A DNA stretch of 16,376 nucleotides from a virus (Duplodnaviria > Heunggongvirae > Uroviricota > Caudoviricetes), in IMG/VR virus record IMGVR_UViG_2850784384_000009, positions 1 to 16,376 of that record; one strand, 5' to 3'. The notes beneath the pieces were generated by a model. It saw only the letters and a list, made by a program, of their open reading frames with translations. It did not search any database and was not told the DNA's origin. Positions 1 to 16,376 of this stretch are shown here, piece after piece. The translations under genes and the position numbers were made by a program. Position 1 is the first letter of the stretch, and each line of letters opens with the position of its first letter.

Positions 1-819
1 ATGTGTCAGGTATTTGGTGTATCCAGGAGCGGTTATTACAACTGGGTACAGCATGAACCCTCAGACAGAAAACAAAGTGATGAGCGGCTAAAACCGGAGA
101 TTAAGGTGGCACATATCCGCACTCGCGAAACATATGGAACCCGGCGGCTCCAGACGGAGCTGGCAGAGAATGGCATCATCGTTGGTCGTGACCGACTGGC
201 ACGTCTTCGTAAGGAGCTGAGGCTACGCTGTAAGCAGAAACGCAAGTTCAGAGCGACTACGAACCCGAACCACAATCTGCCAGTTGCGCCAAATCTGCTG
301 AACCAGACGTTCGCTCCTACAGCACCAAATCAGGTCTGGGTGGCGGACCTGACGTATGTTGCCACACAGGAGGGATGGTTGTACCTCGCTGGCATCAAAG
401 ATGTTTATACGTGCGAAATTGTCGGCTACGCCATGGGAGAGCGCATGACAAAAGAGCTGACAGGTAAAGCCCTGTTTATGGCGCTCAGGAGCCAGCGCCC
501 ACCTGCCGGGCTAATCCACCACTCTGATCGAGGTTCACAGTACTGCGCATACGATTACCGGGTCATACAGGAGCAGTTTGGTCTGAAAACATCAATGTCG
601 CGTAAAGGTAACTGTTACGACAACGCTCCGATGGAAAGCTTCTGGGGAACGCTGAAAAATGAGAGCCTGAGCCACTATCGTTTTAATAACCGGGATGAAG
701 CCATCTCAGTAATACGGGAATACATTGAGATTTTCTACAATCGTCAGCGTCGTCACTCTCGTCTGGGGAATATCTCCCCGGCAGCCTTCAGGGAAAAATA
801 TCATCAGATGGCTGCTTAA
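1..819 (+). CDS. IS3-family transposase OrfB (DDE integrase-type catalytic domain), IS600 ORF2
   Basis: 272-aa ORF beginning MCQVFGVSRSGYYNW; the same protein recurs on the minus strand at 4529..5230. Normally expressed as an OrfAB fusion by -1 frameshifting. Confidence 0.9.
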   Translation: MCQVFGVSRSGYYNWVQHEPSDRKQSDERLKPEIKVAHIRTRETYGTRRLQTELAENGIIVGRDRLARLRKELRLRCKQKRKFRATTNPNHNLPVAPNLLNQTFAPTAPNQVWVADLTYVATQEGWLYLAGIKDVYTCEIVGYAMGERMTKELTGKALFMALRSQRPPAGLIHHSDRGSQYCAYDYRVIQEQFGLKTSMSRKGNCYDNAPMESFWGTLKNESLSHYRFNNRDEAISVIREYIEIFYNRQRRHSRLGNISPAAFREKYHQMAA

Positions 820-861
820 AAAAGAACAAATGGTAGTGTCCGCTATTGCCAGTACACCTCA
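1..861 (+). mobile_element. IS600 (IS3 family) partial copy A: OrfB through the right inverted repeat; OrfA and left end lie upstream of the window
   Basis: OrfB protein matches the IS600 ORF2 sequence as I recall it. The element end ...gccagtacacctca at 861 is the inverse complement of the left-end motif tgaggt... seen at 15912 and at 5632 (minus). The window starts at the OrfB ATG. Confidence 0.8.
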
Positions 862-945
862 ACTTGTGAAGGAAATGGTACTCAGGGGGATTCCAGTACA
901 GGTGGTGCGCAATTAGCTATAAATGGCCTTAACGGTTCGTGCGCT

Positions 946-1569
946 TTGGTATTAAACAACCCATACTTTGAGGCTAATGCCGGGGGGGCAGACCTTGCTA
1001 TAGATAATACTGGGACGCGCCCTGTAACTGTGGTTATAAACGGTGGAAATTTTCATCGCGTGAGCAGTGCAAGATACACGCACACGAATATTCAAGTAAC
1101 AAGCTCAGGTGGGGGAAAAGTTACAGTCATACTCAACGGCACAACGTTCCAGAGCGCAGGGGATTATCAGCCAAGTGCAGAACGACCATACTGGATAACA
1201 GGAGCTAATTGCGAGGTAGTTGACATTGGGTGTGTTTTTACAGAAACAACCAGTAAGGTAACATCGGCTTCTGCATTGTCAGTCACACGCTCGGGAAAAA
1301 TTAACGCCAATGGTAGTATCGACGTTGCTACTGGTGTTTCATCGGTTAACGTGGTTTCTACAGGTGTGTATGATGTTAGCTTTTCTCATCCGCTCGCAGC
1401 AGTTGCTAGCGGTTATATTGTGCAGATAACACCTATATCTGCGCCTGATTCAGTTAGTTGTGATGTTACTTATATTGGCGTAGATACATTTAGGGTGACC
1501 CTGCGCAATACGCTTAGCGGGGCAGGAATCTCCAGTTCGTTTGCATTTAGCATTACCAGACTAATATAA
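946..1569 (+). CDS. 5'-truncated gene fragment of unknown function; possibly the C-terminal receptor-binding part of a tailspike or tail fibre
   Basis: ORF starts at a TTG, but the frame is open with no stop and no start codon back to the IS600 end at 862, so the native 5' part was removed by the IS. It occupies the tailspike position of Sf6/P22 gene order (tailspike, O-antigen modification gene, attP, int). The protein is Gly/Ser/Thr/Val-rich, which fits a beta-rich fold; no motif recognised. Confidence 0.35.
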   Translation: MVLNNPYFEANAGGADLAIDNTGTRPVTVVINGGNFHRVSSARYTHTNIQVTSSGGGKVTVILNGTTFQSAGDYQPSAERPYWITGANCEVVDIGCVFTETTSKVTSASALSVTRSGKINANGSIDVATGVSSVNVVSTGVYDVSFSHPLAAVASGYIVQITPISAPDSVSCDVTYIGVDTFRVTLRNTLSGAGISSSFAFSITRLI

Positions 1570-1577
1570 ATACATTC

Positions 1578-1609
1578 GCCGCCCCATTTGGACATATATG
1601 TAGGGCGGC
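1578..1609. terminator. Putative bidirectional stem-loop terminator between convergent genes
   Basis: gccgccc (1578..1584) and gggcggc (1603..1609) are perfect inverse complements. The 18-nt loop contains the palindrome acatatatgt. T-rich sequence follows on the plus strand. The long loop makes this uncertain. Confidence 0.3.
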
Positions 1610-1622
1610 TTATGTTTATTGT

Positions 1623-2795
1623 TTATTGATTGTTGTTTGTTAATGTGGGTATTAATTCTTTTACTAAAGTTGTGGTTTGTTTTGTTAATTTGATGAATGG
1701 CGTCTCTATTAATTTAAAAGTTAGGCATGATGTGAACGTAATAAGAAATGCAGTTGTGCTTACCAGTATGATAAATGTATTTTCAGTGTAATTATTAGGA
1801 ATAATCCACGTCATTAGGCAATAAAGGAATATCCCATGCAGAAGGTAAACGCTGTAGGTAGTTTCTCCTAGCTTTCTGGTTATATTTAATCTTAATATTC
1901 CATACAAATCACAACCTGATGCGATAATGATAAATGTTATTCCACAAAGAATCAGTGGTAGCGGTGCGTAAGTTGTTTTGAAATACGTCATTTCAAAAAC
2001 CATTATCGCAGTTATTATAATTGGTGTTACTTTTGCTTTGGCAATTCCATTGACTATCTTTGATTTATTTAGCAAAAATGCCAGGAGCCCAAAAAGAAAT
2101 GATGCTATGTGTATTTTACTGAAAAATAAAATGAAAACAAATAGCGATATTGCGCTAATCATAACCATGTAAATACTGACTTTTCTTTTTATGAGCGCGG
2201 AAATTACCGGAAGAGAAAAATAAAAGAACCATTCATATACAAGTGTCCATGTTACAGCGGCATTGATAGTAAATGAATCTTTTACGTCATTAATGTTCGG
2301 CATACCTAGCGCAGTGAATGGCAACCACTTCATTATTGACACAAAAAGCTCTTCTGTGGATACCTGCATTCTCCATCCAGACTTAAAACCTACAATGATA
2401 AAAATGAGACATAGGCTAACTATGAACATTGGGGTTAATCGTAGTAATCTTGATACATAAAGCCTTGTCCAGTCCTGATCTCCAGAGATAATCTTTGAAA
2501 AGAACAGATAACCAGTAATCATAAAAAAGAATGACACACCAACTTGGCCTAAATTTGCTAACAGATTTGATGAAGGTGCTTCCCATACTCCAGATGACAA
2601 GTATCCATTCCAAATTGCTGCGTGATGAATAAGCACGAAAATTGCTAAGAACCCCCGCATTCCATCTATTTGATTATTCCTGCCGTGCTCAACAAGATTT
2701 ATTGGGGAAATTTTATCAAATAACCCCACAGCTAATAACGACATCAATATCACGGATGTTATTAATAATAAACTGTTAATTTCAATCATATGCAT
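1623..2795 (-). CDS. Acyltransferase family 3 integral membrane protein; putative O-antigen O-acetyltransferase (Oac/OafA-like serotype-conversion protein)
   Basis: 390-aa ORF, strongly hydrophobic throughout (multiple predicted TM segments). N-terminal DGMRGFLAIFVLIHHA resembles the acyltransferase-3 signature (conserved R...H). Markedly AT-rich compared with neighbouring phage genes. Sits immediately next to the att core, as oac does in Sf6 and gtr does in P22. Confidence 0.75.
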   Translation of the reverse strand: MHMIEINSLLLITSVILMSLLAVGLFDKISPINLVEHGRNNQIDGMRGFLAIFVLIHHAAIWNGYLSSGVWEAPSSNLLANLGQVGVSFFFMITGYLFFSKIISGDQDWTRLYVSRLLRLTPMFIVSLCLIFIIVGFKSGWRMQVSTEELFVSIMKWLPFTALGMPNINDVKDSFTINAAVTWTLVYEWFFYFSLPVISALIKRKVSIYMVMISAISLFVFILFFSKIHIASFLFGLLAFLLNKSKIVNGIAKAKVTPIIITAIMVFEMTYFKTTYAPLPLILCGITFIIIASGCDLYGILRLNITRKLGETTYSVYLLHGIFLYCLMTWIIPNNYTENTFIILVSTTAFLITFTSCLTFKLIETPFIKLTKQTTTLVKELIPTLTNNNQ

Positions 2796-3083
2796 GCTCT
2801 ATTACGCAATTAAAATTTCTCCAAGTATACTGACTTTTAGTTAATGATCATATAGTTATGTGTAACTGATGAAACAAAACGGAGACACACCAAGCTTTGC
2901 ACTGGATTGCAAGGCTTTGTGCTCTTCTGTGAATGTGTGGCTATATGTTTGAAGATCGTTGTGCCGTATTTGTGACATATATATGGCAACATCATGCATC
3001 AACTTTCTGTTTGTGTCATCAACTATAGCTTAGTGAATGCGGTTAATGCTTGCTAAAACAGATAGTTATGATTGGTGCTACAG

Positions 3084-3129
3084 ATTCGTAATGCGAAGGT
3101 CGTAGGTTCGACTGCTATTATCGGCACCA
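3084..3129 (+). other. Phage attachment core: 3' 46 nt of a tRNA-Thr gene (thrW-type), attP-like
   Basis: attcgtaatgcgaaggtcgtaggttcgact(g)ctattatcggcacca matches the anticodon-loop-to-CCA end of tRNA-Thr(CGU) as recalled. Upstream sequence is not the tRNA 5' half, so no complete tRNA is present. One apparent T-stem mismatch relative to my recollection of thrW. Confidence 0.75.
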
Positions 3130-3143
3130 TTTAAATCAATAAG

Positions 3144-3592
3144 TTACACATCATTAGTACCTTCCTTATTTCTTGACTGGGACAAATTTGGGACCGATGG
3201 GTTCAGAATCAAGTCTATTTGCCGTGCGTGTTCGGTAAGGTGATTAGGTGCGAGGTGAGCATATCGACGAACCATTTCGATAGACTCCCAGCCTCCCATT
3301 TCCTGTAACACTGATAACGGGACTCCGGCTTGAACCAGCCAACTTGCCCAGGTGTGTCTCAAGTCGTGAAATCTGAAATCATCAATACCAGCCCGTCTCA
3401 GCGCCGCTTTCCAGGCTGTGTTTGCGTCATACCGCATCTTCCTTACTGTTGGCGCTTTCGTTCCGTCTGGTTTGGTACAGCTTTCCTTGTACACAAATAC
3501 CCAACGGTGATGATTTCCGATTTGTTTTTTCAATACGCGACATGCAGTATCATTCAGCGCAACGCCAATTGCGCGGTTTGATTTACTCTCTT
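3144..3592 (-). pseudogene. int: Tyrosine integrase, C-terminal catalytic fragment (P22-type Int), separated from its N-terminal part by IS600
   Basis: Contains [15 protein letters not shown] and VRRYAHL (the H-x-x-R and Y of the catalytic tetrad). The first 5 codons of the track ORF 3144..3608 come from the IS600 end. Reads on directly from the N-terminal fragment at 5633..6350. Confidence 0.85.
3590..3592. repeat. 3-bp target-site duplication (ctt) of IS600 copy B, left copy; right copy at 5633..5635
   Basis: ctt immediately flanks both ends of the element (3590..3592 and 5633..5635). Confidence 0.8.
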
Positions 3593-3775
3593 TGAGGTGT
3601 ACTGGCAATAGCGGACACTACCATTTGTTCTTTTTTAAGCAGCCATCTGATGATATTTTTCCCTGAAGGCTGCCGGGGAGATATTCCCCAGACGAGAGTG
3701 ACGACGCTGACGATTGTAGAAAATCTCAATGTATTCCCGTATTACTGAGATGGCTTCATCGGTAATGACTCCAAC

Positions 3776-4279
3776 TTACTGATAGTGTTTTATGTTCAGA
3801 TAATGCCCGATGACCTTGTCATGCAGCTCCACCGATTTTGAGAACGACAGTGACTTCCGTCCCAGCCTTGCCAGATGTTGTCTCAGATTCAGATTATGTC
3901 GCTCAATGCGCTGAGTGTAACGCTTGCTGATAACGTGCAGCTTTCCCTTCAGGCGTGATTCATACAGCGGTCAGCCATCCGTCATCCATACCACGACCTC
4001 AAAGGCCGACAGCAGGCTCAGAAGACGCTCCAGTGTGGCCAGAGTGCGTTCCCCGAAGACGTGCGCCACAACCGTCCTCCGTATCCTGTCATACGCGTAA
4101 AACAGCCAGCGCTGACGTGATTTAGCACCGACGTAGCCCCAATGTTCGTCCATTTCAGCGCAGACAATCACATCACTGCCCGGTTGTATGCGCGAGGTTA
4201 CCGACTGCGGCCTGAGTTTTTTAAGTGACGTAAAACCGTGTTGAGGCCAACGCCCATAATGCGTGCGCTGGCGCGACAT
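3776..4279 (-). pseudogene. insB: IS1 insB reading frame interrupted by an in-frame TGA
   Basis: Frame reads ...VVVWMTDG then TGA (minus-strand codon at 3971..3973) where canonical InsB has Trp (TGG). The frame then continues [27 protein letters not shown]... to the normal end. Confidence 0.75.
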
Positions 4280-4473
4280 CCGACGCCATTCATGGCCATA
4301 TCAATGATTTTCTGGTGCGTACCGGGCTGAGAGGCGGTGTAAGTGAACTGTAGTTGCCATGTTTTACGGCAATGAGAGCAGAGATAGCGCTGATGTCCGG
4401 CAGTGCTTTTGCCGTTACGCACCACGCCTTCAGTAGCGGAGCAGGAAGGACATCTGATGGAAATGGAAGCCAC
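4198..4473 (-). CDS. insA: IS1 InsA (transposition inhibitor / N-terminal part of InsAB')
   Basis: 91-aa [46 protein letters not shown]..., close to canonical InsA with a few substitutions. Confidence 0.9.
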
Positions 4474-4528
4474 GCAAGCACCTTAAAATCACCATCATAC
4501 ACTAAATCAGTAAGTTGGCAGCATTACC

Positions 4529-5230
4529 GGCTTCATCCCGGTTATTAAAACGATAGTGGCTCAGGCTCTCATTTTTCAGCGTTCCCCAGAAGCTTTCCAT
4601 CGGAGCGTTGTCGTAACAGTTACCTTTACGCGACATTGATGTTTTCAGACCAAACTGCTCCTGTATGACCCGGTAATCGTATGCGCAGTACTGTGAACCT
4701 CGATCAGAGTGGTGGATTAGCCCGGCAGGTGGGCGCTGGCTCCTGAGCGCCATAAACAGGGCTTTACCTGTCAGCTCTTTTGTCATGCGCTCTCCCATGG
4801 CGTAGCCGACAATTTCACACGTATAAACATCTTTGATGCCAGCGAGGTACAACCATCCCTCCTGTGTGGCAACATACGTCAGGTCCGCCACCCAGACCTG
4901 ATTTGGTGCTGTAGGAGCGAACGTCTGGTTCAGCAGATTTGGCGCAACTGGCAGATTGTGGTTCGGGTTCGTAGTCGCTCTGAACTTGCGTTTCTGCTTA
5001 CAGCGTAGCCTTAGCTCCTTACGAAGACGTGCCAGTCGGTCACGACCAACGATGATGCCATTCTCTGCCAGCTCCGTCTGGAGCCGCCGGGTTCCATATG
5101 TTTCGCGAGTGCGGATATGTGCCACCTTAATCTCCAGTTTTAGTCGCTCATCACTTTGTTTTCTGTCTGAGGGTTCATGCTGTACCCAGTTGTAATAACC
5201 GCTCCTGGATACACCAAATACCTGACACAT
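4529..5230 (-). pseudogene. IS600 OrfB transposase, 5' part, disrupted by the IS1 insertion (3' remainder at about 3635..3760)
   Basis: Identical to the plus-strand OrfB up to ...FNNRDEA, then the sequence runs into the IS1 end. The last residues of the track ORF 4502..5230 are IS1-derived. Confidence 0.85.
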
Positions 5231-5265
5231 CGCTTCAATGGGAAATTGTTGTCGCCATTGTTCGA

Positions 5266-5568
5266 TTAACGCGTATTTTTCAGCGACTCCTGTGCAAAAT
5301 ACGCTGTTGCTTTTTTTAATATATCTCGCTCAAGGCGAGCTTCATTTAACGCCTTACGCAGTTGCAGAATTTCAGATTCCAGTTCAGCCACCGTGCGGGA
5401 ACCAGGAGTACCGAGCCCTTTTCTGGCGGCGGTAACCCATTGTCCTAAAGTGCCTTCAGGAAGGAATAATCGGGAAGCGTCTTCACTGATCGAAAGTTGA
5501 TTTTCAAGAACCGTTCTGACAGCTTCGGCTTTGAACTCTTTAGAGTAACGTCGGGTTTTTCTGCTCAT
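5266..5568 (-). CDS. IS600 OrfA (helix-turn-helix / leucine-zipper transposase N-terminal protein)
   Basis: 100-aa ORF MSRKTRRYSKEFKAEAVRTVLENQLSISE..., matching IS600 ORF1 as recalled. Confidence 0.9.
   Translation of the reverse strand: MSRKTRRYSKEFKAEAVRTVLENQLSISEDASRLFLPEGTLGQWVTAARKGLGTPGSRTVAELESEILQLRKALNEARLERDILKKATAYFAQESLKNTR
5311..5317 (-). promoter_or_regulatory. Probable programmed -1 ribosomal frameshift slippery site (A7) for the IS600 OrfAB fusion
   Basis: ttttttt on the plus strand is A AAA AAA on the coding strand, near the 3' end of OrfA where the OrfB frame overlaps. This is the standard IS3-family arrangement. Confidence 0.5.
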
Positions 5569-5632
5569 TATTAGCTCCTTCTGATGCCATTCTATTTCAG
5601 GAAGGAGTGTCCGTTAAACTCAGGCTACCTCA

Positions 5633-6350
5633 CTTCCGGGTTTATCCATGCCACCCGGCGCTGCATATCTATTTGTTGCCATTCAAGGTTGATGATGTTC
5701 GAGCGTCTTAAGCCTGTTGCCAGTGCAAATTCAACAACAGACTTTAATGGCTCCGGACATTCATCAATCAGCCTTTGTGCTTCATGGGGCTCCAGCCAGC
5801 GGATCCGTTTATTCTTTGGTTGAGGCACTTTAATAATTGGTGCCTTATCCAGCATTTTCCATTCACGCTCTGCGGCTCTTAGTAGGGCCTTTATAAATGA
5901 AAGATGCGTAGCCTTCGTTGCAACGGACGCTGGTTTTGGCGTGTATTCTGGAACAGGTTTCCCTTTTTTTCTGCATGATTCTGCCCTGAGTTTCCAGTTT
6001 TCCTCATGACGCCGGTTCGTCATTTTCTGCATTGCTGAATAAATTTTTGATTCAGTAATGTCTCTTAGTTGTATTCCTGCGAAATGTTGAAGCCAGAATC
6101 CGATCCGGCTTTTGTCATCGTCCAGTGATTTTTTATGTGCTTTCTCTTCAAGCCACCTGACACACGCTTCCTCGAACGTTATATCAGGTATTTCACCAAG
6201 TTTGCTGACCCGCCATGCTTCAGCCTTTAGCTTGTCATGGAGTTCTGTCGCCTGCCTTTTGTCCTTTGTTCCAAGAGACTGTTTAAATCTTTTACCGTTC
6301 GGCAATGTGAAACTGGCGTACCATATTTCACCTCTGCGGAAGAGTGACAT
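5633..6350 (-). pseudogene. int: Tyrosine integrase, N-terminal fragment (P22-type Int), interrupted by IS600
   Basis: [46 protein letters not shown]... matches the P22 Int N-terminus as recalled. Contains TGLRRSNI (the first catalytic Arg). The last 3 codons of the track ORF plus the stop are IS-derived. Confidence 0.85.
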
Positions 6351-6428
6351 TTTCTTTCCTCTGTTATGCCATCACCCGCGCTCACCTGGACAGTATGCAG
6401 CGGAGACTGAAGAGCCGCAATGAAGTGG

Positions 6429-7597
<1,169 letters not shown>

Positions 7598-7669
7598 TGG
7601 AGCACCTGTGTTGTTCTGAGGTGAGCATATCACCTCTGTTCAGGTGGCCAAATTCAGTGTGCCACTTCA

Positions 7670-8824
7670 TGGATGCCTGTTGAGCAGGAAGCGCCAACCC
7701 AGACTGGCTGGGATTTAACTGGCAACGCAACCGGGATTCTGGAACTCTCCGTGAAGTGCAACATGGGCGATCCGGATAACGATTTCTTCGAGCTTCGTGC
7801 AGATGACCTGCGTGATGAGCGTTCTTACCGTCGCCGCATCCAGGCATCCGCCAAAAAACTGGCGAATAACATTGAGTCAGCGATTGCCAAACAGGCAACT
7901 GAAATGGGCTCGCTTGTTGTTCACGATACCCGCGCAATTGGTCCATCGACTGGCCTGCCTGGCTGGGATTTTGTGTCTGATGCAGAGCGACTGATGTTCT
8001 CCCGTGAGCTAAACCGCGACATGGGCATCAGTTACTTCCTGAACCCTGACGATTACCGCAAAGCAGGCCGCAACCTGGTAGATGGTGACATCTTCGGGCG
8101 CGTTCCTGAAGAAGCATATCGAAACGGTACTATTCAGCGTCAGATTGCTGGCTTTGATGAAATTCTTCGCTCACCGAAACTTCCGGCAGTTACCAAGTCA
8201 ACCGCGACTGGTGTAACTGTTTCTGGTGCGCAGAAGTTTAAGCCGCAGGCATACACCCTTGATACCGATGGTAACAAAGAGAACGTCGACAACCGTGTTG
8301 CAACGGTGACCGTATCCTCCACCACCGGATTTAAGCGCGGCGACAAAATCAGCTTCATTGGTGTGAAGTTCCTGTCTCAGATGGCGAAGAATGTGCTGAC
8401 TGATGACGCGACTTTCTCAATCACCCGTGTGATCGATGGTACTCACATCGAAATCACGCCGAAGCCGATTGCGCTGGATGACGCGTCACTGACAAAAGAA
8501 GAGAAGGCTTACGCTAACGTAAACACCTCTCTTGCTGATACCACTCCGGTAAACGTTCTGAACGTGGCAACAACCACCGCTAACGTGTTCTGGGCTGATG
8601 ACTCAATCCGCCTGCTGTCTCAGCCGATCCCGGTAACCCATGAACTGTTTGCTGGCATGAAAACGTCTTCCTTCAGCATTCCAGGTATTGGTGTTAACGG
8701 CATCTTCGCAACGCAGGGTGATATCAACACTCTGTCTGGTAAGTGCCGTATTGCTGTGTGGTATTCAGCATGTGCTGTACGACCAGAGGCAATTGGTGTT
8801 GGTCTGCCTAACCAGACCGCGTGA
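7670..8824 (+). pseudogene. P22-type major capsid (coat) protein gene, 5'-truncated at the IS911 boundary
   Basis: Reading frame from 7670 gives [18 protein letters not shown]... ending GVGLPNQTA, which aligns with P22 gp5 from about residue 46 to its C-terminus as recalled. No native start or ribosome-binding site; IS911 directly abuts. Confidence 0.85.
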
Positions 8825-8868
8825 TAACCAGAGGGAGCTTCGGCTCCCGTTTTTATCTGGAGACAAGC

Positions 8869-9093
8869 ATGACACACATGATCTTTCGTCATGGCGACAT
8901 GAAGAAGTGGAAAGGCGTTGGCTACGACTTTGAAATCGTGAAAGCCGAAGAGCTTCAGGAATATCTGGATGCTGGCTGGTTTTCACATCCTGATGACCTT
9001 TTGAAGGATGTTGCAGAGCCAGAAGAAAAACAGTGTAAAAAGCCTGGTCGAAAACCTAAGGCGGCAGCAGATGAACCTGACAACGAAGGGTGA
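8869..9093 (+). CDS. Small hypothetical protein between the coat and gp4-like genes
   Basis: ATG at 8869 preceded by ggaga. 74 aa with an acidic, Lys/Pro-rich C-terminus. Overlaps the gp4-like start by 23 bp. The track ORF start at 8821 overlaps the coat stop and is unlikely. Confidence 0.4.
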
Positions 9094-9571
9094 TTTAGTT
9101 CTTGCGGCATTACGTAAGCTCGGTGTTGCATCAAATGCCACGTTAACCGATGTCGAACCGCAGTCTATGGAAGACGGCGTCAACGACCTTGAAATGATGA
9201 TGGCTGAATGGCTTGGCGGTGATGCGTCACCTGGTATCAACGTTGGCTACATTTTTGCTGATGCAGATGTTGCTCCGGATCCGGGCGATGAGCACGGTTT
9301 ATCAAATAACGCTATCAATGCCGTCATTTTCAACCTTGCCTGCCGAATTGCTCCAGATTATGCGCTGGAAGCGTCTGCAAAACTTATAACCACTGCCAGA
9401 TACGGGAAAGAGCGACTCGTCAAACTGTCTGCAATGGACAGGGCAAAAGCAGCTAAATGTAAGTCCGGTTATCCAAACCGTATGCCTGTTGGTAGTGGTA
9501 ACCAGTTGGCGAAGTGGAATGGTTGGAATTACTTCCACCGAAAGGAACCTTGCGATAACGGGAGCGAATAA
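9071..9571 (+). CDS. P22 gp4-like head completion / portal-closure protein
   Basis: From the internal Met: [33 protein letters not shown]... is 166 aa and resembles P22 gp4 as recalled. The upstream 21 codons of the track ORF are probably not translated. Confidence 0.75.
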
Positions 9572-10989
9572 TGCCTATTCAGCAACTTCCGCTTATGAAA
9601 GGTGTCGGCAAAGACTTCCGAAACGCCGACTATATCGACTATCTGCCAGTGAATATGCTGGCTACACCCAAAGAAATCCTGAACAGCAGCGGATATCTTC
9701 GCTCATTCCCGGGCATTGCCAAACGTTCTGACGTGAACGGTGTATCTCGCGGCGTCGAGTACAACATGGCGCAGAATGCTGTTTATCGCGTGTGTGGCGG
9801 CAAGCTGTACAAAGGAGAAAGTGAAGTCGGTGATGTTGCCGGAAGTGGTCGTGTATCAATGGCGCATGGTCGGACATCACAGGCGGTAGGCGTTAATGGT
9901 CAACTGGTCGAGTATCGCTATGATGGCACGGTCAAAACCGTCTCAAACTGGCCTACAGACAGTGGATTCACTCAGTATGAGTTAGGTTCAGTTCGCGACA
10001 TTACGCGCTTACGTGGGCGTTATGCGTGGTCAAAAGACGGAACTGATTCATGGTTTATCACTGACCTTGAAGACGAATCTCATCCTGACCGTTACAGCGC
10101 ACAATATCGTGCCGAGTCTCAGCCTGACGGCATCATCGGTATCGGGACATGGCGAGACTTCATCGTCTGCTTTGGTTCATCGACTATTGAATATTTCTCC
10201 CTGACTGGCGCAACCACCGTTGGTGCCGCTTTGTATGTTGCACAACCATCGCTGATGGTGCAGAAAGGCATTGCCGGAACTTACTGCAAAACGCCATTCG
10301 CTGATTCGTATGCGTTTATCAGCAATCCGGCAACGGGTGCGCCGTCTGTGTATATCATCGACTCCGGTCAGGTGTCACCAATTGCCAGCGCGAGCATTGA
10401 GAAAATCCTCCGCTCCTACACTGCTGATGAACTGGCTGATGGTGTGATGGAATCGCTGCGATTTGATGCTCATGAGTTGCTGATTATCCACCTTCCGCGT
10501 CACGTCCTCGTGTACGACGCATCTTCAAGCGCCAATGGCCCACAATGGTGTGTGCTGAAAACAGGTCTGTATGACGATGTGTACCGCGCTATCGACTTCG
10601 TTTACGAAGGCAATCAGATAACGTGCGGCGATAAGCTGGAATCTGTTACCGGGAAACTGCAATTCGATATCAGCAGCCAGTACGACAAGCAACAGGAACA
10701 CCTGCTGTTTACTCCACTCTTCAAAGCGGATAACGCCAGAGTGTTCGACCTTGAGGTTGAATCGTCAACTGGCGTTGCGCAGTACGCCGACCGCCTTTTT
10801 CTCTCTGCAACCACTGACTGCATCAATTACGGGCGTGAGCAGATGATTGAGCAGAATGAACCGTTCGTTTACGACAAGCGTGTTTTGTGGAAGCGAGTAG
10901 GGCGCATCAGGAAAAATGTCGGCTTCAAATTGCGCGTTATCACGAAGTCACCTGTCACTCTGTCTGGCGCTCAGATAAGGATTGAGTAA
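9571..10989 (+). CDS. P22 gp10-like head completion / tail hub protein
   Basis: 472 aa starting [49 protein letters not shown], near-identical to P22 gp10 as recalled. Start overlaps the upstream stop (taATG). Confidence 0.85.
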
Positions 10990-11786
10990 TGGCTGATTCG
11001 AATCTCAATGTGCCGGTAATCATCCAAGCTACGCGGCTCGATACATCAGTCCTTCCACGCAATATCTTCTCGCAGTCGTATCTGCTTTACGTTATCGCAC
11101 AGGGCACTGATGTTGGTAACGTGGCTAACAAAGCCAACGAGGCCGGACAGGGCGCTTATGATGCACAGGTCAGGAACGATGAGCAGGATGTGATTCTCGC
11201 TGACCATGAGCAGCGAATTTCTGCTGCGGAAGCAACGCTTGTTAATCATGAGGAGCGAATCAGACAGGCAGAATCAACTCTTCAGGACCATGAAACACGA
11301 ATAGCTCAGAATGAAAGCGATATTTCGTCGCTTGACACAAGAGTTCAGTCGCTGGAGTCGCAGGTTTCAGACCATGAAACGCGCATCGATGCTCTGGAGT
11401 ATGCAACCACACGCAAGAAGTCAGAGGTTGTTTACTCTGGTGTATCTGTAACCATCCCGACAGCGCCGACCAACCTTGTTAGCCTGCTGAAAACGCTCAC
11501 ACCGTCATCCGGCTCGTTGGCACCATTCTTCGACACCGTTAACAACAAGATGGTTGTGTTCAACGAGAACAAAACCCTGCTCTTCAAGTTGTCGATTGTC
11601 GGCACGTGGCCCAGCGGAACCGCCAACAGGTCAATGCAGCTAACCTTTTCCGGCTCTGTTCCTGACACACTGGTCAGCAGTCGTAATGCGGCGACAACAA
11701 CCGACAACATCCTGTTAGCTACGTTCTTCAGCGTGGATAAAGACGGCTTTCTTGCCACAACCATCAAGATAATCGCGGAGCAGTGA
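10989..11786 (+). CDS. P22 gp26-like tail needle (cell-envelope penetrating plug) with an extended C-terminal domain
   Basis: Conserved N-terminus [41 protein letters not shown]. Central 14-residue periodic repeat (DHExRI...) typical of the trimeric coiled-coil core. About 125 aa of C-terminal domain beyond the helical core. Confidence 0.8.
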
Positions 11787-12241
11787 TGATTACATTCAAA
11801 CCAACGCGAAACATCGACCTGATAGAAGCAGTCGGAAATCACCCTGACATTATCGCCGGGAGCAACAACGGTGATGGATACGACTACAAACCTGAATGCC
11901 GTTACTTTGAGGTGAACGTGCACGGTCAGTTTGGCGGCATTGTTTACTATCAGGAGATTCAGCCGCTGACATTAGATTGCCACGCCATGTACCTGCCAGA
12001 GATTCGCGGCTTCAGCAAGGAAATTGGGCTGGCGTTCTGGCGATACATTCTGACTAACACCACCGTTCAGTGCGTAACATCGTTCGCTGCACGCAAATTC
12101 CGACACGGTCAGATGTACTGCGCAATGATTGGCCTTAAGCGTGTAGGAACCATCAAGAAATACTTCAAAGGCGTGGATGACGTGACTTTTTACAGCGCCA
12201 CACGCGAAGAACTAATCGACTTCCTGAATCACGGGAGATAG
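11783..12241 (+). CDS. gp14-position virion assembly/ejection-associated protein
   Basis: Intact 152-aa ORF immediately after the needle gene with an ATGA start/stop overlap. Assigned by synteny with P22 (26, 14, 7, 20, 16). Confidence 0.55.
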
Positions 12242-12243
12242 CC

Positions 12244-12852
12244 ATGTTATATGCATTTAAGCTGGGCAGAAAACTGTGCGGCGAGGAACCTTATTGCCCT
12301 GAAAAAGGCGGGAAAGGTGGCAGTTCTGATAAAAGCGCAAAGTATGCAGCAGAAGCCCAGAAGTATGCTGCAGACCTGCAAAATCAGCAGTGGCAGACGA
12401 TCATGAAAAACCTTGCTCCGTTCACGCCTCTTGCGGAGCAGTATGTTAACCAGCTTCAGAACCTTTCCAGTTTAGAAGGTCAGGGGCAGGCACTTAATCA
12501 GTATTACAACTCTAAGCAGTATAAAGACCTTGCAGGGCAGGCGCGTTACCAGAGTCTTGCTGCTGCGGAGGCGACGGGTGGACTTGGTTCGACAGCCACA
12601 AGCAATCAACTGGCTACGATCGCGCCGACACTCGGTCAGTCTTGGTTATCAAATCAGATGAGCAATTACAACAATCTGGCAAACGTTGGGCTTGGTGCGC
12701 TGCAAGGTCAGGCAAACGCCGGGCAGACGTACGCCAACAACATGAGCAGCATTGCACAGCAAAGCGCAGCTCTTGCCAGCCTTTTGGGAACATCAACGCC
12801 TTGGGGCGCTGGTATTGGTGCTGGTATCGGATTGCTTGGCTCGTTGTTTTAA
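12244..12852 (+). CDS. gp7-like ejection (internal virion) protein
   Basis: 202-aa ORF MLYAFKLGRKLCGEEPYCPEKGGKGGSS... with a Gly-rich hydrophobic C-terminus. Assigned by synteny and N-terminal resemblance. Confidence 0.6.
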   Translation: MLYAFKLGRKLCGEEPYCPEKGGKGGSSDKSAKYAAEAQKYAADLQNQQWQTIMKNLAPFTPLAEQYVNQLQNLSSLEGQGQALNQYYNSKQYKDLAGQARYQSLAAAEATGGLGSTATSNQLATIAPTLGQSWLSNQMSNYNNLANVGLGALQGQANAGQTYANNMSSIAQQSAALASLLGTSTPWGAGIGAGIGLLGSLF

Positions 12853-12861
12853 GGGGTAATC

Positions 12862-14193
12862 ATGGCTACTTGGCAAGGAACAAACGGCGGATTGTTGGCT
12901 GGTATCGGCGGCGTCAACTCAAACGCTCCGAGCGTAAATGACATCGGCAATACGCTTCAGCTTATCAGGCAGAACAATGATATTGAGCGTTCAGGCGCTA
13001 ACAATGTTGGGCTGACTGCTTTGCAAGGTCTTTCAGGTATTGCGGGTGTTTTTCAGCAGGAAAAGCAGGCTCAGCGGCAGAAAGAATTTCAGCAGGCGTA
13101 CGCTAATGCTTATGCGTCTGGTGATCGCGGTGCTTTGCGTCAGTTGGCTACTCAATATCCAGACCAGATTGAATCCGTTCGTAAAGGCATGGGATTCATT
13201 GATGAAGAGCAGCGTAATTCTATCGGCACCTTAGCGGCTGGCGCACGCCTTGCGTCATCGTCTCCAGAAGCAATGCAATCATGGCTGCAAAACAACGCCG
13301 GTGAGTTAGCTCGTGTTGGCGTTAATCCTCATGACGTCGCTCAGATGTACCAACAGAACCCGCGGCAGTTCGGCGAATTTGTCGATCACCTGGGGATGAA
13401 CAGTCTCGGGCCCGAAAAATACTTTGACCTACAGGATAAAATGCAGGGTCGCCAGGTTACCATGCGCGGTCAGGATCTGGATTCGCAAACCGCCGCTCGG
13501 AATCAGGCAATCACAATGCGCGGACAAGATATCCAGGCGAATTTAGGTCAGCAGCGCATTAATCTGGACGCAGAAACAAACCGCATTAACAACGAAAATA
13601 AGCGCCTTGACCGGATGCTATCAGCAGAAACTAACGACCTGAAGCGCCAGGAAATACAGAGCCGCATAGCAGCCAACAACCAGCAGTTGCAGCAGAAGCA
13701 GCAAGCGCTAAATGATGGCTACAAAGACGGCATCAACACCCTCACAACCAGCATGTTCACTCTGAACGATATCGTTAGTTCTCCTTCACTTAAGAGCATT
13801 ACAGGCTTACGTGGAGTAATCCCCAACGTTCCAGGCTCACAGGCTGCAGACACTCAGGCACGACTTGATACCTTTAAATCACAAGCATACCTGACAGCGG
13901 TTCAGGCCATGCGAGGCATGGGCGCACTTTCTGATGCCGAGGGCAAAAAGCTCGACCAGGCTGTTGGTTCGCTGCAGAACTCGCAGAGCGAGGAGTCCTT
14001 TCGTCGCAACGCTGGCGTCATCCTGAACACGCTCAACCAGAAGCGTAATGAGGCGGTTGGTAAGTACGTTCAGCAAAACGGTATCAAGCGAGTGGAAGCG
14101 CCTCAGGCTTCTATAGATTACCTGAAGCAGCACCCCGAGCTGTCAATCGACTTCATTAATCGCTACGGATATCTTCCATCTTTGGGGCAGTAA
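12862..14193 (+). CDS. gp20-like ejection (internal virion) protein
   Basis: 443-aa ORF, Gln/Asn-rich with internal TMRGQD repeats. Assigned by synteny. Confidence 0.6.
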   Translation: MATWQGTNGGLLAGIGGVNSNAPSVNDIGNTLQLIRQNNDIERSGANNVGLTALQGLSGIAGVFQQEKQAQRQKEFQQAYANAYASGDRGALRQLATQYPDQIESVRKGMGFIDEEQRNSIGTLAAGARLASSSPEAMQSWLQNNAGELARVGVNPHDVAQMYQQNPRQFGEFVDHLGMNSLGPEKYFDLQDKMQGRQVTMRGQDLDSQTAARNQAITMRGQDIQANLGQQRINLDAETNRINNENKRLDRMLSAETNDLKRQEIQSRIAANNQQLQQKQQALNDGYKDGINTLTTSMFTLNDIVSSPSLKSITGLRGVIPNVPGSQAADTQARLDTFKSQAYLTAVQAMRGMGALSDAEGKKLDQAVGSLQNSQSEESFRRNAGVILNTLNQKRNEAVGKYVQQNGIKRVEAPQASIDYLKQHPELSIDFINRYGYLPSLGQ

Positions 14194-15924
14194 ATGGCTA
14201 ATTACCGTGATTTGTTAGAGCAGGCTGGCGCACGTTACGGTGTGCCAGAAGGGTTGATGACTGCACTGGGTGCCAAGGAGTCTTCTTACAACCCTGCCGC
14301 AGTAAGCTCCGCCGGGGCTGTAGGATTGACTCAGGTCATGCCTGGGACATGGCGTGATATGGGTTATACCGATGAGCAAATGCAAAACCCCGAATATCAG
14401 GCTGACGCTGGCGCGCGCTATCTGGCAAAGATGTACCAGCAGTTTGGTAACTGGCGTGACGCTCTTCAGGCTTATCACGACGGTCCCGGCAACGTTATGA
14501 AGGCAAAGCGTGGTGAATATACGCCAGGACCTGAAGGCCGCGGTTACGTTGATGATCGCTTTGCTCAATGGGCTGGTGACCCGGTGACAGACTCAACAGT
14601 CGAACAGCGCGCCACCTCTGCAAAGGTACATCCTCAGCAAGACCCTAACAACCCGTTTGCACAACTGGAAGTACAGTCATCCGAACAAGTATCGGCATCA
14701 GGTGTGCAGTCAGACCCAAATAATCCATTTGCTCAGATTGAGCAGCAGGCAGCCAGTCAGCAGCCACCTCAACCCGTAAGTTCTGTCGCACCGAAACCTG
14801 TTCAGCAACAAACAGTTAATCAGGCCAATAATGCACCAACACGGGAAGAACCATCATTGATGCAACAAGCTGGCGATTGGCTCACTGGTGGTCAAAGTGC
14901 AGGGCAAATTGCAGAACAGGCTGGTCGTGGTCTGGTAAACATACCATTTGACGTATTGCAGGGTGGCGCAAGTCTGATTAATGCAATCAGTCAGGGGCTT
15001 GGGGGGCCAAAAGTATTGGATGATGTTTATCGTCCAGTAGACAGACCGACAGACCCCTACGCGCAAGCTGGAGAGTCAATAGGCGGTTATCTTGTTCCTG
15101 GAGCAGGTGTAGCTGGAAACATGGTCATTGGTTCTCTCGCTGACGCGGCGAATCAACGGGGTGATTTTGCCGAAAATGCCGCTATTAATGCCGGACTTAG
15201 CATTGCTACGCATGGCCTGATAAATGGCGTTACCCGTGGTGTTCGTGGTGCATCAAATATAATTAGTGGCAATAAAACATCTGCACAGAGAGCGACCACT
15301 GCGCCAACAGAAACATCACCATTCTCCGGTGATGCCGCTGCAGCAACAAATCCTGCGGTTCATGCCGCAGAGGCAAGAGTAGCACAAGGTGTACCAATGA
15401 CGCCTGCGACGAAGAACCCAGAGGAAGTCGTTCGCACAGTAGCAGCACAAAAAAGGCCAAATCTCGCTTCATCGCTTGATGAACTAGATATCAATCCTCA
15501 GGCTGAAGTTCTGGAGTCTGCTGAAAGGCTTAATGTTGATTCATTACTCCCTTCACACTTTTCCGGGAACGAGCAATACAAGGCAGTTGAGCAAGCAATC
15601 AAGTCCCGTGCGGGTTCTGCTCTACAGGTGCAGGAAAATGAAGCAATCAGGCAGCTAGCACAGGGCGCGGGTGAGATAATTGATCGCGTTTCCGGTGCAA
15701 AAGATGCTCTTGGTATGAGCGACAAGTTTATTGATACGGTCAATGGAAGAATGTCTGCGCTGATGAAACGAAGCGACCAGCTTTATCGCAATGTTGAAAA
15801 GGCGATGCCTGCAGGTGCAAAAATTGATGCGCCATCAACAAGGTCAATGCTCAAACAGGTGGCAGAAGATCTTGGCGGGATGAAAAACCTTGACCCTATT
15901 GAAAAGAGAGTTGAGGTAGCCTGA
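14194..15924 (+). CDS. gp16-position ejection protein with N-terminal lytic transglycosylase (SLT) domain; 3' end replaced by the IS600 terminus
   Basis: N-terminal [28 protein letters not shown] plus AYHDGPGNV are SLT-family motifs including the catalytic Glu-Ser. The last 4 codons (VEVA) and the stop lie inside the IS600 left end, which starts at 15912. Confidence 0.7.
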
Positions 15925-15995
15925 GTTTAACGGACACTCCTTCCTGAAATAGAATGGCATCAGAAGGAGCTAATAATGAGCAGAAAAACCCAACG
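15912..15995 (+). mobile_element. IS600 left-end fragment (inverted repeat plus first 7 codons of OrfA), interrupted by IS629
   Basis: tgaggtagcctgagtttaacggacactccttcctgaaatagaatggcatcagaaggagctaataatgagcagaaaaaccc is identical to the inverse complement of 5553..5632. It diverges at 15996 where IS629 begins. Confidence 0.85.
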
Positions 15996-16376
15996 TGAAC
16001 CGCCCCGGGAATCCTGGAGACTAAACTTCCTGAGAAAGAGGTAAACAGGATGACTAAAAATACTCGTTTTTCCCCCGAAGTCCGTCAACGGGCAGTCCGT
16101 ATGGTTCTGGAAAGTCAGGGCGAATATGACTCACAATGGGCGACAATTTGTTCCATTGCCCCAAAGATTGGCTGTACGCCGGAGACTCTGCGTGTCTGGG
16201 TTCGCCAGCATGAGCGGGATACCGGGGGCGGTGATGGAGGGCTCACCACCGCTGAACGTCAGCGTCTGAAAGAGCTGGAGCGTGAAAATCGTGAACTGCG
16301 CCGCAGTAACGATATCCTTCGCCAGGCTTCCGCTTATTTTGCGAAGGCGGAGTTCGACCGCCTCTGGAAAAAATGA
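15996..16376 (+). mobile_element. IS629 (IS3 family), left end and OrfA; continues beyond the window
   Basis: Starts tgaaccgccccgggaatcctggagac, the IS629 terminus as recalled, followed by OrfA. Confidence 0.8.
16050..16376 (+). CDS. IS629 OrfA
   Basis: 108-aa [53 protein letters not shown]...AEFDRLWKK. The window ends at its stop codon. Confidence 0.85.

Follow-up and report, generated by a model that had tools for sequence, protein, structure and literature searches.

The integrase gene (int) of an oacB-carrying prophage remnant in Shigella flexneri is interrupted by one IS element that is itself interrupted by another, and this raises the questions of how the nest was formed, in which order the elements arrived, and whether the loss of the integrase is the reason why the remnant does not excise. 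The window, i.e., the whole stretch of 16,376 nucleotides analysed here, matched S. flexneri FDAARGOS_535 (CP034060.1), the predicted serotype of which is 1b, with 100% identity. The remnant lies between psiF and adrA and is bounded by two direct copies of an element with outer ATC and inner ACG repeats. From its sequence we take this element to be IS629 (the database label gives IS3 family transposase only). Of 5426 E. coli genomes, 5420 had an empty psiF-adrA site. Wang et al. (2014, J Bacteriol 196:1525; cited in PMC4159516 and PMC4206707) reported an oacB "transposon-like structure" that lies upstream of adrA in S. flexneri of serotypes 1a, 1b, 2a, 5a, and Y. As far as it is described in the citing papers, the locus in the window, with oacB next to IS elements and upstream of adrA, is this published structure. 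The features of the window are listed in Table 1.

Table 1. Features of the analysed window (position 1 is its first nucleotide)
Feature	Position	Strand	Remarks
IS600 copy A	1..861	+	Part of the 3' 1182-nt piece of an IS600 split by IS629; window begins inside it
oacB O-acyltransferase gene	1623..2795	-	Intact, 390 aa; serotype-modifying cargo
att core, 46 nt	3084..3129	+	Equals the thrW 3' end with one C-to-G change at 3114 (45/46)
Integrase gene, 3' part	3144..3592	-	Codons 239-387 and stop
CTT target duplication of IS600	3590-3592 (left), 5633-5635 (right)	.	Abuts both ends
IS600 copy B, whole	3593..5632	-	TGAGGT...ACCTCA ends; 1263 bp without IS1 and one repeat
IS600 copy B, 3' segment	3593..3760	-	orfB end and right terminal repeat; contains left IS1 target copy
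GGCTTCATC, 9-bp target duplication of IS1	3752-3760 (left), 4529-4537 (right)	.	
IS1	3761..4528	-	768 bp; Zn_ribbon_InsA, HTH_Tnp_IS1, and DDE_Tnp_IS1 domains
IS600 copy B, 5' segment	4538..5632	-	Left terminal repeat, orfA, and orfB codons 1 to ~231
Integrase gene, 5' part	5636..6350	-	Codons 1-238 and first base of codon 239
xis remnant	6227..6420	-	3' 194 nt only; N-terminal part lost at IS911 junction
IS911	6421..7669	-	No target duplication; 100% identical to annotated IS911
P22/Sf101-like virion genes	7670..15911	+	From 5'-truncated coat gene to gp16-like gene truncated at 15911
IS600 copy C	15912..15996	+	Initial 85 nt of the IS600 to which copy A belongs; ends in ACG, the IS629 target
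IS629 left end and orfA	15997..16376	+	Right-hand boundary copy; runs off the window

IS600 belongs to the IS3 family, the members of which transpose by a copy-out, paste-in route and generate a 3-bp duplication. It is typically about 1264 bp long, has TG...CA ends with imperfect terminal inverted repeats, and links orfA to the overlapping orfB through a -1 frameshift. IS600 copy B was 99.4% identical to annotated IS600, with match boundaries at exactly 3593 and 5632, and its 3' segment was 100% complementary to positions 694-862 of copy A. Its orfA was intact (5266-5568, 100 aa). After in silico removal of IS1, the element encoded a 100-aa OrfA (HTH_Tnp_1) and a 272-aa OrfB (HTH_21, rve, rve_3, and rve_2); the two genes overlap at an A-rich slippery stretch, and orfB is interrupted by IS1 in situ. 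IS1 lies at codons 232-234 of the 272 codons of orfB, and GGCTTCATC is perfectly repeated on both sides of it, immediately outside its ends (a 9-bp match is expected by chance at about 4e-6). The placement of both elements and their target duplications in the initial annotation was therefore correct to the base, and the exact ends and intact duplications agree with its reading of each element as a simple insertion. However, a CTT match by itself has a chance probability of 1/64, so that a reconstruction of the interrupted gene was needed.

Elements of the IS1 family measure about 768 bp, have imperfect inverted repeats of about 23 bp that start with GGTAATG/GGTGATG, encode InsA and, in the -1 frame, InsB (InsAB' transposase), and usually duplicate 9 bp of target. 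The IS1 copy has imperfect terminal inverted repeats (GGTAATG...), in which 20 of the first 23 positions agree between the two ends, and it was 99.3-99.6% identical to other IS1 copies. insA was intact (4198-4473). The insB frame matched DDE_Tnp_IS1 and contained a premature TGA at plus-strand positions 3971-3973, where other copies have TGG; this stop was private to the window genome. Judged by its sequence, the element is IS1, and it has probably lost the ability to move on its own. We found nothing that contradicted a nested insertion.

Removal of both IS elements and one copy of each repeat restored a continuous integrase gene. Positions 3144-3592 joined to 5636-6350 formed a 1164-nt ORF of 387 aa with no frameshift at the junctions. 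The reconstructed gene aligned with SfIV int without gaps and with 9 mismatches, and the 50 nt around the junction were identical to those of SfIV, including one copy of AAG (CTT on the opposite strand); uninterrupted int alleles likewise had the trinucleotide only once. Over all 387 aa, the reconstructed Int was 99.0% identical to SfIV Int and 98.5% identical to SfII Int, and it was 89% identical to P22 Int with no gaps over the 381 residues compared. PF00589 was detected at residues 184-355 (E = 6.5e-48). The insertion point at codon 239 thus falls within the catalytic domain, and not between the N-terminal and catalytic halves of the protein as had been proposed. According to a reading of the motifs, R215 would be encoded by the 5' fragment and K242, H314, R317, W340, and Y349 by the 3' fragment. 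The split gene is therefore best regarded as a pseudogene of the P22/SfII-type (thrW-specific) tyrosine integrase family, with the predicted catalytic residues no longer on one polypeptide; the earlier statement that the integrase is inactivated agrees with this prediction. The 5' part reads into IS600 to give a 241-aa chimeric ORF (5625-6350), and exactly this protein occurred on at least 20 public contigs. At the position of the 3' part, a 154-aa PF00589 fragment was called in one complete chromosome (L013).

The initial annotation further held that, with the integrase inactivated, the element cannot excise by its own site-specific recombination. This would make the disruption of int the step that immobilised a prophage able to excise until then. 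The gene is certainly broken, and excision of SfII-type phages requires both Int and Xis, but several features of the element make this explanation very unlikely. The att core, 14 bp from the int stop codon, and the phage P arm (approximately 2874-3083) form an intact attP, which is flanked by phage DNA to the left and to the right, the same continuity that is seen in HK542 and mEp213. This was the only core in the whole element, and no second core was found between adrA and psiF. ARAGORN detected no tRNA gene in the window (it called thrW in two other loci, L005 and L006), and an attL beside a tRNA gene was ruled out, the thrW-like stretch being the 46-nt core alone. In an integrated prophage, attL and attR form the flanks, and int lies at the end opposite to that of the conversion gene (PMC3630932). 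In the window, oacB and int are adjacent across the intact attP, and the element terminates within the psiF-adrA spacer in IS629 copies instead of in attL and attR; with its single core, the element does not fit an integrated, excisable prophage.

Furthermore, xis, which overlaps int in SfIV and HK542 and is intact in two other loci (L002 and L023), is truncated here. IS911, the left boundary of which can be placed only to within 1-3 nt (6420-6422), links the xis remnant to the 5'-truncated coat gene, and approximately 24 kb of phage DNA has been deleted at this point. An IS911 also lies in xis of CP026871 (L003); we considered it as the origin of this junction and rejected it, because the two sites are about 105 bp apart and the elements are in opposite orientation. 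Finally, 2457T and similar strains carry an intact 387-aa int at the same junction in the same fixed remnant. The single intact attP, truncated xis, large IS-associated deletions, and IS629 ends indicate that site-specific excision would be impossible even if Int were functional. The broken integrase is one of many lesions in the remnant, and its loss does not account for the absence of excision.

The int::IS600 allele was found beside thrW in some strains and beside attP-oacB in others. A tentative scenario is that the remnant does not occupy the integration site of the phage: a prophage bearing IS600::IS629 may have excised from thrW, which regenerated attP, and may have been captured between psiF and adrA through IS629 recombination or cointegration. 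Its attP might still recombine with the att site at thrW, with Int supplied by a co-resident SfII-type prophage. We regard this scenario as possible rather than probable; if it is true, attP x thrW recombination would explain the strain-dependent position of int::IS600. Instead of excision followed by IS629 capture, an equivalent pair of inversions could have led to the same arrangement. We also considered that the attP-like junction is the hybrid site of a tandem lysogen and not a regenerated attP. This is conceivable for the species as a whole, but in this genome the single core and the IS629 boundaries stand against it.

The order proposed in the initial annotation, IS600 first and IS1 later, held, although the nesting from which it had been deduced is insufficient proof, because an IS600::IS1 composite could move as a unit. 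IS1 would then have entered IS600 elsewhere, and the 2040-bp composite would have moved into int with transposase from other copies. The geometry by itself is compatible with this course of events, as are the intact IS600 ends and the many other IS600 copies that could serve as a transposase source. However, six genomes (L002, L003, L005, L006, L022, and L023; all S. flexneri-type chromosomes, one of them filed as E. coli) contained identical int::IS600 junctions, but their IS600 was uninterrupted and had the 9-bp target only once, which shows that IS600 arrived first. The target was also single in copy A of the window (694-702), which served as an empty-site control. In addition, the derived C-to-G change in the core was exclusive to the IS1-bearing loci in which a core is present (L004, L028, and L013, the last of which includes the window; n = 4 counting the window); the IS1-bearing genomes form a derived group marked by this change. 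Insertion of a preformed composite is thus highly improbable.

2457T and six other chromosomes (L024-L026, L029, L030, and L033) carried an uninterrupted int at this attP-oacB junction. The 2457T-type gene is a slightly different allele (8-15 SNPs), and it is best considered an empty-site homologue, which may or may not be the immediate ancestor. Orthologous IS1 copies differed from each other at 2-5 positions, whereas their flanks were nearly identical. These differences would have to stem from gene conversion or from separate insertions of IS1 at one site. We consider the former more likely, because the orthologous copies share their site, orientation, and duplication as well as the linked SNP in the core.

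The nested junctions recurred in three complete chromosomes (L004, L013, and L028), a draft genome (L014), and a Logan read assembly (L019). Shigella carries IS1 and IS600 in high copy number, and drafts often break at them (many of the contigs were short), but a collapse or mis-joining of multi-copy IS elements can be practically dismissed, since the same junctions recur in independent assemblies and mis-joins would not yield perfect duplications and exact restoration of the ORF. The int/IS600 junction was found at two loci in species-representative genomes, both without IS1, and an exact scan of metagenome contigs did not detect the IS1/IS600 junction. A look-up of the chimeric OrfB'::IS1 protein returned one short contig, which is no measure of its distribution because gene callers are inconsistent in how they fuse orfA with orfB.

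We are therefore highly confident that the nest resulted from two successive simple transpositions into int of a defective P22/Sf101-like oacB prophage remnant of S. flexneri. In the first step, IS600 interrupted the gene of an SfII/P22-type tyrosine integrase of 387 aa at codon 239, in its catalytic domain, with duplication of CTT. In the second step, later and in one sublineage, IS1 entered codons 232-234 of orfB of that IS600, with duplication of GGCTTCATC. The residues required for catalysis would consequently be separated on two integrase fragments. The transposase of IS600 copy B lacks its last ~40 residues, while both IS600 ends remain intact, and neither Int nor the transposase is predicted to be active.

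The integrase module of the remnant resembles those of the thrW-integrating phages SfIV, SfII, SfI, SfV, SfX, HK542, and P22, which have a 387-aa Int and the 46-nt thrW core; Int identity to that of the remnant was 97-99% for the Sf phages and 89% for P22. The P22 layout of tailspike, conversion gene(s), attP, int, and xis is also that of the remnant. In contrast to these modules, int of the remnant is split by IS600::IS1, xis is truncated, and the core carries the C-to-G change; the conversion cargo is oacB instead of gtrABC. Compared with Sf101 (KJ832078), an oacB-carrying P22-like phage of S. flexneri 7a, the tailspike C-terminus and oacB were 91% identical and the virion genes were 90-98% identical and in the same order. 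However, whereas int of the remnant is of the SfII/P22 type and its attP of the thrW type, the integrase of Sf101 is unrelated and the phage integrates at sbcB. The window strain keeps approximately 8 kb of virion genes that are missing from many other strains with the oacB structure.

S. flexneri carries IS1, IS600, IS629, and IS911, of which IS1 is the most abundant, and inversions as well as deletions around the serotype-conversion region have been attributed to IS elements (PMC1550401). The nest is ordinary, routine IS damage of a kind that has already been sequenced, and it does not differ categorically from the IS-in-IS nesting and IS-driven prophage decay known in Shigella. It is one well-preserved case with the full set of intermediates, which run stepwise from intact int through int::IS600 to int::IS600::IS1, with a further IS911 in one strain; this series could act as a marker of S. 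flexneri lineages. For annotation, the locus indicates that att sites and the real boundaries of an element should be checked before a broken integrase is blamed for immobility. While the surrounding phage has been dismantled, the serotype-modifying gene oacB has stayed intact, and exactly this OacB protein was listed in 2935 blocks of the collection.

Both insertion sequences in the integrase gene (int) are bounded by intact direct repeats. The 9-bp sequence GGCTTCATC directly abuts both ends of IS1 (3752-3760 and 4529-4537), reproducing the exact coordinates of the initial annotation, which placed IS1 within OrfB of the interrupted IS600 (copy B) with a perfect target duplication. The ctt reported on both sides of IS600 copy B also directly abuts the element (3590-3592 and 5633-5635). 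A flanking match arises by chance at about 4e-6 for 9 bp and at 1/64 for 3 bp, and therefore the CTT pair required an independent test. Joining 3144-3592 to 5636-6350 gave the expected continuous minus-strand ORF (1164 nt, 387 aa), uninterrupted by any frameshift or stop. The reconstructed gene aligned with phage SfIV int without gaps, 9 positions being mismatched; a 50-nt stretch spanning the junction was identical to SfIV and contained just one AAG, the reverse complement of CTT. Over all 387 residues, the reconstructed Int showed 99.0%, 98.5% and 97.4% identity to the Int proteins of SfIV, SfII and SfV, respectively, and the proposed comparison with P22 Int gave 89% identity with zero gaps over 381 residues.

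Coordinates of the features in the window
Feature	Position	Size	Remarks
IS1	3761-4528	768 bp	terminal inverted repeats imperfect, 20 of the first 23 positions matching
IS600 copy B	3593-5632		starts TGAGGT, finishes ACCTCA
IS911	6421-7669		100% identical to annotated IS911
Split IS600, head	15912-15996	85 nt	head and tail at opposite element ends
Split IS600, tail	ending at 861	1182 nt	
Second nest, with IS629	15912-16376 and 1-861		702-2007 and 18324-19628 in L013, the source of the window
att core	3084-3129	46 nt	equals the thrW 3' end
oacB	1623-2795		intact; 390-aa product

Searched against complete E. coli genomes, 3593-5632 matched exactly, at 99.4%, to features annotated as "IS3-like element IS600 family transposase" and "IS1 family transposase". 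Once IS1 and a single 9-bp repeat are taken out, IS600 copy B measures 1263 bp and encodes an OrfA of 100 aa (HTH_Tnp_1) and an OrfB of 272 aa (HTH_21, rve, rve_3, rve_2). The IS1 target corresponds to IS600 nt 1096-1104, that is, OrfB residues 232-234, downstream of the rve core (107-205); thus, the copy B transposase lacks about 40 C-terminal residues, while both element ends are kept. IS1 carries an intact InsA (91 aa) and a DDE_Tnp_IS1 frame. The nested insB frame has a TGA stop at 3971-3973, where other IS1 copies, including the orthologous ones of loci L004, L014 and L028, have TGG; the stop is either a private change of this genome or a sequencing error. Compared with 3761-4528, the same-site IS1 copies showed 5 differences in L004 and 2 in L028. 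Across window 1-5094, L004 showed only about six differences, five of them within IS1, which points to gene conversion between the numerous IS1 copies and not to ordinary divergence.

The initial annotation regarded the order of insertion, IS600 first and IS1 later, as fixed by the nesting. Nesting by itself is insufficient, as the entry of a ready-made IS600::IS1 composite into int is conceivable. Comparison settled the order: six loci (L002, L003, L005, L006, L022 and L023) have int::IS600 junctions identical to those of the window, carry no IS1 and contain the 9-bp target once. The window also holds an empty-site control, copy A of IS600 (1-861), which is uninterrupted and has the target once, at 694-702. 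Furthermore, a chimeric 241-aa ORF, reading from int into IS600, was found on at least 20 public contigs. Four loci (L004, L013, L014 and L028) and a fragment from a read assembly (L019) carry IS1 at the same site. At position 3114, in the att core, a C-to-G change was confined to L004, L013 and L028, the three IS1-bearing loci whose sequence extends over the core; thrW itself, the remaining genomes and the phages examined all have C there, and the change is a marker of the IS1-bearing lineage. The IS1-free int::IS600 loci and the confinement of the core change to IS1-bearing loci indicate a single arrival of IS1, in a sublineage whose int already contained IS600. This series of intermediates makes the nested insertion a tidy worked example.

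In L004 (UGYU01000001.1, 11258-12508), the same IS600 copy also carries an IS911 at the equivalent of 5092-5094, where the flanking alignments overlap by 3 bp, and its integrase thus contains IS600, IS1 and IS911. In the draft contig L007 (JAJHBX010000137.1), int::IS600 continues into virulence-plasmid-type genes (PAP2 phosphatase, omptin, NleE-like), probably through an assembly join across the IS600 repeat.

IS600 was described as separating the N-terminal and catalytic halves of the integrase, but the insertion, in codon 239, falls inside the Phage_integrase catalytic domain (Pfam, Int residues 184-355). From the conserved motifs, Arg215 would lie on the 5' fragment and Lys242, His314, Arg317, Trp340 and Tyr349 on the 3' fragment. 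Wherever the cut falls relative to the domain, the integrase can safely be considered inactivated.

Integrase loss was also proposed as the reason that the element cannot excise, and this explanation did not hold. The genes are arranged as tailspike fragment, oacB, att, int and xis, which matches the vegetative gene order of P22, with oacB in place of gtrABC; in an integrated phage, the conversion gene and int are at opposite ends (PMC3630932). The 210 bp left of the att core are not tRNA but a phage arm, which in HK542 and mEp213 runs unbroken through the annotated attP; the nearest 45 nt are identical to HK542. The site is therefore an intact attP (2874-3143), not attL or attR. No second att core was found in the whole 21-kb adrA-to-psiF locus, xis is cut by IS911 to its last 194 nt, and about 24 kb are missing. 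Moreover, many other S. flexneri chromosomes, including 2457T (AE014073.1), have an uninterrupted 387-aa int at the same attP-oacB junction and retain the fixed remnant too.

The int of 2457T-type strains is a slightly different, SfII/SfIV-like allele, and its 8-15 SNPs are all on the int side of the core, with zero on the oacB side. We compared allele positions in L006, L022 and L023 with those in the window, L002-L005 and L028, and also in L024-L033. Depending on the genome, the int::IS600 allele adjoins either a complete thrW (true attL) or attP-oacB, and the position left over is always taken by an SfII-like allele. In CP178302.1, int::IS600 is in an attL-type context, assigned from homology starting at the core, and the int at oacB is intact; CP026768.1 has the two the other way round. 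An exchange of arms appears to have taken place at the att core or close to it.

IS911 in the window (region 6420-7672) has no target duplication and lies between the xis remnant and a 5'-truncated coat gene; its left boundary is ambiguous through a 1-3 nt overlap (ATG). Compared with Sf101, about 24 kb (early, lysis, terminase, portal and scaffold genes) are absent, implying an IS-associated deletion of roughly that size. In L028, the equivalent deletion extends further, to a gp14-like gene. A second stretch present in Sf101, about 2.45 kb between 861/862 and 15911/15912, is absent at another IS600, whose flanks at these points differ (ACT vs AGT); the missing DNA covers the end of the gp16-like gene, one small ORF and the tailspike gene up to about nt 1035. 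IS629 splits this IS600 and has duplicated ACG; the two IS600 pieces together give 1264 bp, and each adjoins one full IS629. The outer flanks of both IS629 copies share ATC and, joined with one ATC, form the contiguous psiF-adrA sequence of 5420 of 5426 complete E. coli genomes, in which the spacer is empty; it is into this spacer that the 18.9-kb unit as a whole has been inserted. The arrangement ATC-IS629-ACG ... ACG-IS629-ATC matches the product of an IS629-bearing circle recombining with, or cointegrating into, the spacer; two successive inversions would lead to the same product.

The locus is the oacB "transposon-like structure" upstream of adrA published by Wang et al. (2014), as cited in PMC4159516 and PMC4206707. 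Sequence identity between the window and CP034060.1 (S. flexneri FDAARGOS_535, serotype 1b by prediction; PMC9455713) is 100%. As this genome is public and the element types, duplications and IS-in-IS nesting are standard, the finding is already known. In S. flexneri, IS-mediated inversions are documented around the serotype-conversion region, and among the IS elements IS1 is the most numerous (PMC1550401). The exact OacB product appears in 2935 blocks of the public collection, consistent with the O-antigen acetylase having been kept by selection during phage decay.
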